A program made the position numbers and the translations under genes. This document shows positions 631-25,701 of a stretch of DNA of 32,000 bases, piece after piece. The stretch lies in assembly GCF_000179635.2 (NCBI RefSeq), contig NC_014833.1, forward strand, positions 3,450,001 to 3,482,000. Direction: 5' to 3'. Origin of the DNA: Ruminococcus albus 7 = DSM 20455 (GTDB lineage: Bacteria; Bacillota; Clostridia; Oscillospirales; Ruminococcaceae). The notes beneath the pieces were generated by a model. The model had not been told where the DNA came from, ran no database searches, and saw only the letters and a program-made list of their open reading frames with translations. Position 1 is the first letter of the stretch. Each line of letters starts with the position of its first letter.

Positions 631-812
631 ATAAAAAGCCTCCCATTCCGAAGAATGAGAGGTGAAATTTTACATGAAATTCCTCATCTTCCGGAAATAA
701 CCGCAGGATTTGGCACCTTGACAAGATACGAACGGTAACTACCGCACGCACTATAACAGGTTGCCGGGCTTCACAGGACCTGATTCCTCCACCACTCTTG
801 ATAAGGCTATTT
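631..812 (-). promoter_or_regulatory. SAM-I (S-box) riboswitch with intrinsic terminator expression platform, in the metK leader
   Basis: The minus-strand reading is CUUAUCAAGAGUGGUGGAGGAAUCAGGUCCUGUGAAGCCCGGCAACC...AAGGUGCCAAAUCCUGCGG...GAAGAUGAGGA. This matches the conserved S-box core and the P1 pairing CUUAUC/GAUGAG. It is followed by the terminator CCUCUCAUUCUUCGGAAUGGGAGG plus UUUUUAUU (complement 631..664). The terminator 5' arm can alternatively pair with the P1 3' strand (antiterminator logic). Confidence 0.9.
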
Positions 813-1054: not shown

Positions 1055-1125
1055 GCGGGTGTAGTTCAATGGTAGAACTCCAGCCTTCCAAGCTGGCCAC
1101 GTGGGTTCGATTCCCATCACCCGCT
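1055..1125 (+). tRNA. tRNA-Gly, anticodon UCC
   Basis: Acceptor GCGGGTG/CACCCGC. Anticodon arm CCAGC-CTTCCAA-GCTGG gives anticodon TCC. T-loop GGTTCGATTCC. No encoded 3' CCA. Confidence 0.93.
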
Positions 1126-1147
1126 TTTACTGTTGAATACAGTATAT

Positions 1148-1221
<74 letters not shown>

Positions 1222-1225
1222 TTAC

Positions 1226-1300
1226 GGTGGGTATAGCGTAGTTGGTTAACGCGTCAGATTGTGGTCCTGAAGATCGAGAGTTCGAATCTCTCTACCCACC
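1226..1300 (+). tRNA. tRNA-His, anticodon GUG, with the extra 5' G(-1)
   Basis: G(-1) plus GTGGGTA/TACCCAC acceptor, with discriminator C pairing to G-1 (a His hallmark). Anticodon loop TTGTGGT gives anticodon GTG. T-loop AGTTCGAATCT. No encoded CCA. Confidence 0.92.
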
Positions 1301-24256: not shown

Positions 24257-24838
24257 TTGAAAGAATCCAAACAGATAGGCATATACAAAAATTATCTTCG
24301 TGAACATCTATCGAAGAAGAGGTATACCCATTCGCTGAACGTGGCTGCGTCTGCGGTGGAGCTTGCAAAAAAGTACGGCGGAGATACCGATAAAGCGTAT
24401 ACAGCAGGACTTCTCCATGATATAGCCAAGGAACTTCCCGCTGATGAACAGCTTGAACTGGTGATGTCTTCCACACTCGATGTAAGCGAGATAGAAACGA
24501 AAGCGCCCCCGCTTTTTCACGCAATAGCAGGAGCAGAGCTGATACAGACACTTTTCGATATACACGATACGGAGATAATCACAGCGATACGCAGGCATAC
24601 CGTCGCATCGGGCGGCATGAGCAAGCTGGATGTGATAATATATCTTGCAGACCTCATCTCAGCTGACAGGGATTACAAGGATGTTAGCCGTATGCGAAAA
24701 CTGGCTGACAAGAGCCTTGAACGTGCGATGTGTGAAGCGCTGAGATTTTCCATATCGGATTCCGTCAGCAAGGGAAACACTATCCCCACAGCAACGCTGG
24801 ACGCTTACAACGAGTACATAAAGTATATGAAAAAGTAG
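24257..24838 (+). CDS. yqeK: HD-domain protein YqeK (bis(5'-nucleosyl)-tetraphosphatase, symmetrical)
   Basis: TTG start. RYTHSLNVA...GLLHDIAKE (HD motif). Follows nadD as in B. subtilis. Confidence 0.85.
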   Translation: MKESKQIGIYKNYLREHLSKKRYTHSLNVAASAVELAKKYGGDTDKAYTAGLLHDIAKELPADEQLELVMSSTLDVSEIETKAPPLFHAIAGAELIQTLFDIHDTEIITAIRRHTVASGGMSKLDVIIYLADLISADRDYKDVSRMRKLADKSLERAMCEALRFSISDSVSKGNTIPTATLDAYNEYIKYMKK

Positions 24839-24871
24839 TCTTATAAGAGTACAAAAAAATAACCGCAAATG

Positions 24872-24900
24872 TTGACAACGCCCTACATATATGTTATAAT
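24872..24900 (+). promoter_or_regulatory. sigma-A type promoter inside the yqeK-rsfS spacer
   Basis: TTGACA 24872..24877, 17 nt spacer, TGtTATAAT with hexamer 24895..24900 (extended -10). Confidence 0.7.
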
Positions 24901-24962
24901 ACCGAATGGGTATTGCACGTAAGCGGCAAAAGGCGGTATCTCCCGCAAGGGAGGTGATAGCA

Positions 24963-25058
24963 ATGGCAATAACTACATCTGAACTTTTTCAGTTTGTTAT
25001 TATGTTGACCGGAGTTGTCACTCTATGCTATCTGATCTTTCACGATAAGAAAAAGTAG
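24963..25058 (+). CDS. 31-aa hydrophobic peptide, type I toxin-like (resembles Hol-Tox small peptides)
   Basis: Below the ORF-track size cutoff. ATG at 24963, TAG at 25056..25058: MAITTSELFQFVIMLTGVVTLCYLIFHDKKK. It has one TM helix and a lysine tail. A strong SD GGGAGGTGA (24949..24957) lies 5 nt upstream. The SD is paired in the hairpin CTCCC-GCAA-GGGAG (24940..24953). Confidence 0.55.
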   Translation: MAITTSELFQFVIMLTGVVTLCYLIFHDKKK

Positions 25059-25067
25059 AGTTTCTTA

Positions 25068-25178
25068 CATAAAAAATAAGAAACACCGCCCAATCGACCA
25101 AAATTGACGGTGTTTCAATGCACTAAACAATAAGGGAGAACCGCTGAAGCCGACGGCTTTGTGCAGTACCCTTTCTTT
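25068..25178 (-). ncRNA. candidate ~110-nt antisense sRNA convergent with the peptide ORF
   Basis: Bounded by the consensus minus-strand promoter (25185..25213) and a minus-strand intrinsic terminator. The terminator stem is GAAACACCG/CGGTGTTTC (25080..25116), followed on the minus strand by UUAUUUUUU. There is no SD or start codon in it. Confidence 0.45.
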
Positions 25179-25184
25179 ATAGAC

Positions 25185-25213
25185 ATTATAACATGAAATA
25201 AACAGATTGTCAA
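25185..25213 (-). promoter_or_regulatory. sigma-A type promoter firing leftward (antisense) just upstream of rsfS
   Basis: On the minus strand: TTGACA (complement 25208..25213), 17 nt spacer, TGtTATAAT with hexamer at complement 25185..25190. Confidence 0.65.
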
Positions 25214-25233
25214 TAGATGACAGGAGGAATAAC

Positions 25234-25602
25234 ATGGCAGAGTTAACTACCGAGCAGAAGCTCGAAATAATAGTAAAAGCACTGGATTCAAAGCGCGGCG
25301 AGGACATACAGGCTATAGGTATAGGCGATCTTACTATACTTGCTGACTACTTCATAATAGCAAACGGCGGTTCTACCGTGCAGACAAAAGCTATGGCTGA
25401 AGAAGTTGAATTCAAGCTGTCTCAGGAGGGCATCGAGCCTCATCATACCGAGGGCTACGGTCCCAACAACTGGATAGTGCTTGACTACCGCGATATCGTG
25501 GTACACGTATTCAACAAGGAAACAAGAGATCAGTACAAGCTGGAAAGGCTCTGGACTGACGGCAAGGAAGTTGATATCTCAGGATTTATAACCAAGAACT
25601 GA
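25234..25602 (+). CDS. rsfS: ribosome silencing factor RsfS (YqeL/iojap family)
   Basis: Start moved to the ATG at 25234 (AGGAGG 25222..25227). ALDSKRGEDIQAIGIGDLTILADYFIIANGGSTVQTKAMAEEV...VVHVFNKETRDQYKLERLW. Confidence 0.9.
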   Translation: MAELTTEQKLEIIVKALDSKRGEDIQAIGIGDLTILADYFIIANGGSTVQTKAMAEEVEFKLSQEGIEPHHTEGYGPNNWIVLDYRDIVVHVFNKETRDQYKLERLWTDGKEVDISGFITKN

Positions 25603-25611
25603 GCGCGGCTA

Positions 25612-25640
25612 TTGCAAAGTTAGAAAAGATATGTTATAAT
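25612..25640 (+). promoter_or_regulatory. sigma-A type promoter for leuS
   Basis: TTGCAA 25612..25617, 17 nt spacer, TGtTATAAT with hexamer 25635..25640. Confidence 0.6.
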
Positions 25641-25701
25641 AAGCTCTGAGATCTTTTGTTTCATGGGAAACACATAATATTACAAGGATGATGAATTAAA
25701 A

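Follow-up and report, generated by a model that had tools for sequence, protein, structure and literature searches.

A putative type I toxin-antitoxin cassette in the yqeK-rsfS spacer of a Ruminococcus-like Clostridium and its relatives in other genomes

Between yqeK and rsfS in the 32-kb stretch of DNA analysed here (the window) lies a cassette that is probably, with a likelihood of about 75%, a self-contained type I toxin-antitoxin-type module in the style of TxpA/BsrG. The first-pass annotation had proposed a type I toxin-antitoxin-like element, or a small membrane peptide with an antisense RNA, and at the level of sequence comparison this reading is supported because the same architecture recurs in 50 other loci in unrelated contexts, the ORF shows coding constraint, the RNA structures covary and a strain with an empty site exists. 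Transcription of both RNAs, toxicity of the peptide and the direction of regulation are what we infer from these comparisons. On this reading, the window branch is a divergent sub-family of a known kind of module. The cassette comprises the following features:

24839..25206, no strand: cassette segment absent from the metagenome contig L052 (blastn breakpoints 24838/24839 and 25206/25207, and alignment)
24872..24900, plus strand: predicted promoter of the peptide mRNA, TTGACA-17-TGtTATAAT, 12/12 (promoter scan; counterpart upstream of the ORF in 31/49 related loci)
24907..24962, plus strand: predicted 5' UTR (MFE folds, RNAalifold, pair counts, cognate versus non-cognate duplex energies)
24940..24956, plus strand: hairpin CTCCC-GCAA-GGGAG sequestering the Shine-Dalgarno sequence (SD), arms 24940-44 and 24949-53 (fold and conservation in relatives)
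24963..25058, plus strand: 31-codon ORF for a predicted single-helix membrane peptide with a KKK tail (translation, family alignment, codon-position variability)
25069..25178, minus strand: predicted antisense sRNA of ~110 nt (from promoter and terminator; fold z -3.4; no Rfam family)
25069..25116, minus strand: predicted intrinsic terminator of the sRNA, stem GAAACACCG/CGGTGTTTC at 25080-25116, T-run at 25069-25079
25132..25181, plus strand: 3' arm of the long-range helix and local hairpin, then UUUCUUUAU (MFE folds)
25185..25213, minus strand: predicted promoter of the antisense sRNA, 12/12 with TG (promoter scan; convergent promoter there in 42/49 related loci)

Promoters, terminators and the insertion site

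The first-pass annotation had already listed the promoters, the SD hairpin, the ORF and the minus-strand terminator, all of which are present at the coordinates given above. Both the plus-strand promoter and the convergent promoter (25213..25185) match the sigma-70 consensus at 12/12 positions and carry the extended TG, as originally read. Six such 12/12 sites with an extended TG occur in the 32-kb window, compared to 0.02 expected per shuffled window, and those outside the cassette precede real genes, for example the tRNA cluster and the SAM-riboswitch gene. The SAM riboswitch (window 681-807, minus strand) and three tRNA genes (1055-1300, plus strand) have their 12/12 promoters at 856 on the minus and 990 on the plus strand, respectively; further 12/12 promoters are located at 1695 and 3476, both on the plus strand.

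The terminator had been described as serving the minus strand only, and indeed the hairpin at 25080-25116 (dG -17.9, z -3.7) is followed by a T-run on that strand only; having a loop of more than 8 nt, it was missed by the terminator scan tool. A plus-strand hairpin overlooked earlier lies at 25132-25173 (dG -15.3), is followed by UUUCUUUAU and is likely the end of the peptide mRNA, so that the overlap between mRNA and sRNA would be ~110 nt. The predicted mRNA thus measures ~275 nt (~24907-25180) and the predicted antisense RNA ~110 nt (~25178-25069). The latter lies wholly in the complement of the mRNA 3' UTR, without overlap of the ORF, and the predicted overlap (~110 nt, 25069-25178) is of the TxpA/BsrG type. 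At the sequence level, promoter, terminator and covariation point to an antisense RNA able to pair with the toxin mRNA.

The genes surrounding the cassette are ftsY, rdgB, yhbY, nadD, yqeK (24257-24838), rsfS (25234-25602) and leuS. Assignment of yqeK by TIGR00488 (end 24838) and of rsfS by TIGR00090 (start 25234) leaves a spacer of 395 nt, in agreement with the earlier estimate of about 395 bp between yqeK stop and rsfS start. The accompanying claim that these two genes normally abut held only roughly: spacers in relatives range from ~9 to 160 nt, the closest relatives have a promoter of their own in the yqeK-rsfS spacer, and one distant relative (L063, RsfS identity 59%) has a 400-aa ORF in the gap (1273-2475), therefore the junction is not universally tight. 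Judged from sequence alone, the L063 ORF resembles a LytR/LCP-family protein.

A metagenome scan with RsfS yielded 12 rsfS loci, and the cassette was absent from rsfS in 12/12. Among them, contig L052 encodes YqeK, RsfS and LeuS proteins identical to those of the window, with 98.8-98.9% DNA identity in both flanks. In blastn, homology ends exactly at 24838/24839 and 25206/25207, and instead of the 368-nt cassette L052 has 58 nt with its own 12/12 rsfS promoter, TTGACAaagataaacaggcaTGaTATAAT; the spacer of L053 is the same. Because L052 is near-identical and cassette-free, the cassette was gained or lost within the species, and this empty site bears out the proposed insertion into the operon, probably a recent one, and the presence-absence polymorphism at yqeK-rsfS. 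Such a pair of strains, differing by the cassette in an operon related to the ribosome, could be used to probe effects of the module on neighbouring genes.

The same comparison bears on the idea that the spacer is the native rsfS-leuS leader and the small ORF a regulatory upstream ORF or leader peptide. The cassette does lie directly upstream of rsfS on the same strand, and the window strain has no other promoter of at least 10/12, and hence none of rsfS's own, between the two. Yet 0/50 homologous cassettes adjoin rsfS, yqeK or nadD, and all 12 metagenome rsfS loci lack the cassette, including L052 with its own 12/12 promoter. A leader-peptide role for rsfS is contradicted by synteny, and we give next to no credence to a native leader. 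Because the cassette replaces the native rsfS promoter, rsfS may be transcribed only via read-through. In the strongest form of this idea, transcription of rsfS (and possibly leuS, by read-through) would depend entirely on elongation of the toxin mRNA or of the upstream operon transcript past the convergent strong promoter and the sRNA target, which would place ribosome hibernation under a type I antitoxin RNA; we consider this doubtful.

Two observations concern the flanks of the cassette. The -35 hexamer of the sRNA promoter (TTGACA, minus strand) lies in the flank shared by the window (25207-25219) and L052 (2475-2487), where L052 reads TTGATA; a near-consensus -35 hexamer that was already there may have been recruited or improved by the cassette junction. 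Further downstream, the spacer upstream of leuS is only 99 nt long (window 25603-25701), with a promoter at 25612-25640 (10/12 with TG), and the window as a whole yielded no T-box leader. A Firmicute leuS without a T-box leader is unusual.

A family of related cassettes and their peptide

As the first-pass annotation had stated, the ORF at 24963..25058 encodes MAITTSELFQFVIMLTGVVTLCYLIFHDKKK, a small hydrophobic peptide of 31 aa with a hydrophobic stretch from L8 to F26 and an HDKKK tail, and this plan is kept in the family alignment. A search with an extended frame of 50 aa gave one match, P0001, and thereby locus L001 on a 1.2-kb Logan contig. L001 shows the same promoters and SD hairpin, a peptide identical in 27/31 residues and an identical terminator hairpin, and it adjoins a different gene than the window cassette. 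This otherwise near-identical cassette carries a ~100-nt hairpin-forming insert (275-375) between the peptide stop codon and the sRNA terminator, which may be a small mobile hairpin element.

Using the window and L001 peptides as queries, a scan of species-representative genomes revealed 50 further loci in at least 40 genomes, several of which have two to three copies. These loci belong to Ruminococcus, other Oscillospiraceae, Lachnospiraceae, Blautia and one MAG labelled Gastranaerophilales. None of the 50 contains yqeK, rsfS or nadD, the sole window gene among them being a leuS in L047, which is divergent and lies on the opposite strand, and the flanking genes range from housekeeping genes through to apparent large serine recombinases. 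A second copy of the cassette was looked for within the window and not found. The window locus thereby anchors a family in dozens of species, mostly missed by gene callers. A 2019 review of Clostridia recorded TxpA-like sequences only in C. bolteae (PMC6563280), and the text of the T1TAdb paper makes no mention of Ruminococcus or Lachnospiraceae (PMC8594479).

To survey promoters across the family, matches of at least 10/12 were counted in 49 loci, with 200-nt blocks elsewhere in the same loci serving as controls. A minus-strand promoter was found 40-240 nt past the stop codon in 42/49 loci, a plus-strand promoter in the same region in 7/49, and a plus-strand promoter upstream of the ORF in 31/49, compared to 5.6% of control blocks with a promoter. 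Moreover, the stem of the sRNA terminator showed compensatory changes in six of its 13 pairs (19 loci).

The family alignment has the consensus M-(V/I)-T-(Y/F)-S-E-L-F-Q-F-V-I-M-L-x-x-V-I-T-L...KK. Examination of the ORF in homologous cassettes, as suggested earlier, confirmed its conservation: it is intact, at 28-39 aa, in 49/51 loci, a sample biased toward intact ORFs by having been gathered by peptide similarity, and the third codon position is the most variable. Pairwise differences of 0.33, 0.22 and 0.54 at codon positions 1, 2 and 3, respectively, are a coding signature, by which the ORF is under coding constraint.

The resemblance to the Hol-Tox family that had been suggested did not hold for the window peptide itself and stands only indirectly, through its relatives. 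In hmmscan against Pfam including Hol_Tox (PF16935), the window peptide had no match at E<=10, while 9/34 relatives matched PF16935. Only the L019 peptide passes the gathering score of 23.3 (24.2 bits, E 3e-5), the other matching relatives remaining below this cut-off at 13-17 bits. At its C-terminus, the L019 peptide has VTLCYLIFHKKK in common with the window branch. The apparent link of the peptide to TxpA/BsrG exists only via Pfam Hol_Tox: the family HMM gave no significant score on B. subtilis TxpA and BsrG, which is a weak test.

Further searches gave a similar picture. The NCBIfam scan of the window peptide returned noise only and no match, and seven relatives weakly matched NCBIfam PepG1. 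PHROGs gave weak matches only, among them a 'holin' family that 8 members hit with a best E of 0.0032, and a PADLOC scan found nothing. Rfam cmscan of 24700-25400 at E<=10 produced chance-level hits only (best E 0.76, far short of the gathering scores) and no known antitoxin family, and tblastn against phage and plasmid collections gave no match with a query that the low-complexity filter may have masked. A single-peptide search of 1.84 billion representatives returned 14 matches only; by exact look-up in a collection of 15 billion predicted proteins, 8/10 member peptides were absent and none of those found bears a name. The family peptide motifs were not found in the literature searched.

Individual loci depart from the common plan. 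In L002 (3096-3280) the 3' arm segment (GGGAGAACCGCT...) is tandemly duplicated downstream of the peptide gene, and in L018 (439-642) the stop codon is lost, the frame reading through to 67 aa. L007 (2881-3210) retains a 12/12 sRNA promoter but no longer has the toxin promoter, the SD or the initial codons, and may thus be an orphan antitoxin. Two Lachnospiraceae cassettes, in L038 (3229-4635) and L045 (3380-4825), lie directly upstream of ORFs that by their N-terminal motifs resemble large serine recombinases, which suggests that some copies travel on integrative elements. In the Lachnospiraceae-type loci L036-L051, the first ~35 nt past the stop codon form a hairpin with T-runs on both strands, an apparent bidirectional terminator by which the RNA overlap may differ from that in the window branch; the complementarity between leader and downstream region is nonetheless kept in L036-L051.

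Folding of the mRNA and a proposed mechanism

The SD, GGGAGGTG at 24949-24956, is masked in the CTCCC-GCAA-GGGAG hairpin just as the first-pass annotation had it, placing it in a stem of four to five GC pairs (CUCCC/GGGAG). This hairpin is kept in relatives with varying loops (GAAA, GCAA, GTAA, TCAA and others), and its stems differ among sub-branches (CCCCC/GGGGG, CTCCTT/AAGGAG, CAGCT.CC/GG.AGCTG). In addition, the spacer between SD and AUG (GATAGC in the window, GATAAC in most relatives) pairs with an in-ORF GTTATC (GTTGTC in the window).

A P1-like helix with compensatory changes joins the two ends of the mRNA. Its 5' arm consists of GGGTATTGCAC (24908-24918), then GCGG...GGCGGTATCTCCC, and its partner lies at 25134-25172; across the family, the mRNA 5' start GGGTAYTGC...GCGGT.TCTCCC is the complement of the stretch that immediately precedes the U-run, GGGAGAACCGC...GCAGTACCC. 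MFE folds of 19/19 full-length transcripts showed this 5'-3' closure. In a 17-sequence mRNA alignment analysed by RNAalifold and pair counts, 96.9% of cells were paired, and 14 pairs were compensatory, compared to 5.9±1.5 in shuffled alignments (0/500) and 0-4 in slid controls; five of the seven pairs of the distal 5'-3' helix were compensatory. Duplexes of leader and 3' region had a mean energy of -42.1 kcal/mol for cognate, -28.7 for non-cognate and -19.7 for shuffled combinations. For a bsrG-like mRNA fold, the family is a natural source of covariation data.

This pairing also bears on whether the cassette is a miniature inverted-repeat mobile element, with promoter-plus-leader arms kept as DNA, as terminal inverted repeats, and an incidental ORF. 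Its ends are indeed inverted copies of the promoter followed by GGGTAYTGC...GCGGT.TCTCCC, and it occurs at many unrelated sites. Yet the arms tolerate G.U and not A.C, and the plus-strand RNA pairs better than its complement in 30/31 loci, which points to RNA pairing, rather than a DNA repeat, as what is under selection; the asymmetry indicates that selection acts on the mRNA and implies that the mRNA extends through the sRNA gene. As the ORF also shows coding constraint and no target-site duplication is evident by eye at the window junctions, such an element is a very improbable explanation.

Masking of the sRNA site in partition-function calculations reduced the probability of the SD being unpaired from 0.23 in the full-length mRNA to 0.02 in the window. 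The family mean fell from 0.24 to 0.09, with a drop in 20/30 loci and a rise in one. The shift in SD accessibility is a modest one and a thermodynamic prediction only.

Under the type I toxin-antitoxin reading, the strong plus-strand promoter would drive an mRNA of ~275 nt (~24907-25180) for the 31-aa membrane peptide. Translation would be held low by the GC hairpin over the SD, with pairing of the SD-to-AUG spacer to codons inside the ORF as a second brake and the long helix between the mRNA ends as a third. The convergent, equally strong promoter would yield the ~110-nt sRNA, which would match the mRNA 3' UTR as a perfect complement, the 3' arm of this helix included. Pairing of the two RNAs would generate a long duplex cleavable by RNase III; it may also free the anti-SD segment, allowing the SD hairpin to close fully, as experimentally shown for SR4 on bsrG mRNA.

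A different view of the same elements is that the peptide is a small, non-toxic membrane protein serving some physiological function, for instance modulation of a membrane complex, and that the cis-antisense RNA merely tunes its level without any toxin-antitoxin pair. Architecture alone cannot tell such a protein from a toxin, as illustrated by YhzE-2, which has an antisense RNA and caused no toxicity when tested (PMC2887945), and the window peptide lacks a significant match to curated toxin families. The cassette is, however, multi-copy and strain-variable, sits in a different context in each genome, has three predicted layers of translational occlusion, retains the sRNA promoter in L007 despite loss of the 5' part of the toxin gene, and has relatives that reach Pfam Hol_Tox. 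Such properties are typically seen in addictive or selfish type I modules rather than in a small protein with a housekeeping function, and we thus regard a non-toxic protein as unlikely and favour a toxin-antitoxin-type module.

Comparison with known systems

Among the established systems, hok/Sok of plasmid R1 has, like the window cassette, a full-length toxin mRNA whose 5' and 3' ends fold back on each other. Sok targets the 5' leader and works via the coupled leader ORF mok; for activation, the mRNA must be trimmed at its 3' end. Unlike the window cassette, hok/Sok is a system of Gram-negative bacteria, with an unrelated peptide family.

The fst/RNAII system (par, Enterococcus pAD1) resembles the window cassette in its small hydrophobic toxin, convergent transcription and a terminator hairpin common to both RNAs. 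The two par RNAs contact each other through direct repeats in their 5' parts, which lie outside the overlap. In contrast, the ends of the window cassette are inverted rather than direct repeats, so that the 5' part of the sRNA resembles the mRNA leader rather than complementing it, its pairing falls in the 3' UTR, and the hairpin after the stop codon has its T-run on the minus strand only, which does not fit an assignment to Fst/RNAII.

Comparable in layout is the txpA/RatA family, to which Fozo et al. linked 'holin-like toxin' annotations and for whose E. faecalis member EF3263 they showed a ~110-nt antisense RNA over the 3' UTR (PMC2887945). EF3263 and the window cassette have the same gene layout, with an antisense RNA of ~110 nt, a predicted one in the window, in this position, and the peptides of the two families share an N-terminal (T/V)-(Y/F)-(S/E)-(E/S)-L, one TM helix and a basic tail. 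Unlike the 'holin-like toxin' proteins of the txpA/RatA family, the window peptide scores nothing against Hol_Tox and most of its relatives stay below the cut-off. RatA was reported to act only via RNase III-dependent decay, without refolding of the RBS (PMC6562991).

From bsrG/SR4 of the B. subtilis SPbeta prophage, the window cassette differs in several respects. Its host is a Ruminococcus-like Clostridium rather than a Bacillus, its predicted sRNA of ~110 nt does not overlap the ORF and is without an Rfam antitoxin match, while SR4 measures 183 nt, most family members lack a separate terminator stem after the long helix, and the family profile detects no similarity to the BsrG peptide in a weak test. 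Structure probing of bsrG mRNA identified a helix P1 joining nt 1-35 to 232-262 (PMC3834814); the bsrG SD lies in a 4-bp stem, which binding of SR4 at the 3' end extends to 8 bp, and the two RNAs are complementary over 100-140 nt at their 3' ends (PMC3834814, PMC6562991). In both systems the peptide is hydrophobic, measures ~30-38 aa and ends in a KKK tail; both also have convergent promoters, an antisense RNA (in the window a predicted one) complementary to the mRNA 3' end, an SD in a short GC stem and a long helix that joins the 5' and 3' ends of the mRNA and encloses the ORF (PMC3834814). In both, occupation of the sRNA site would tighten sequestration of the SD, an effect predicted for the window and experimentally established for SR4.
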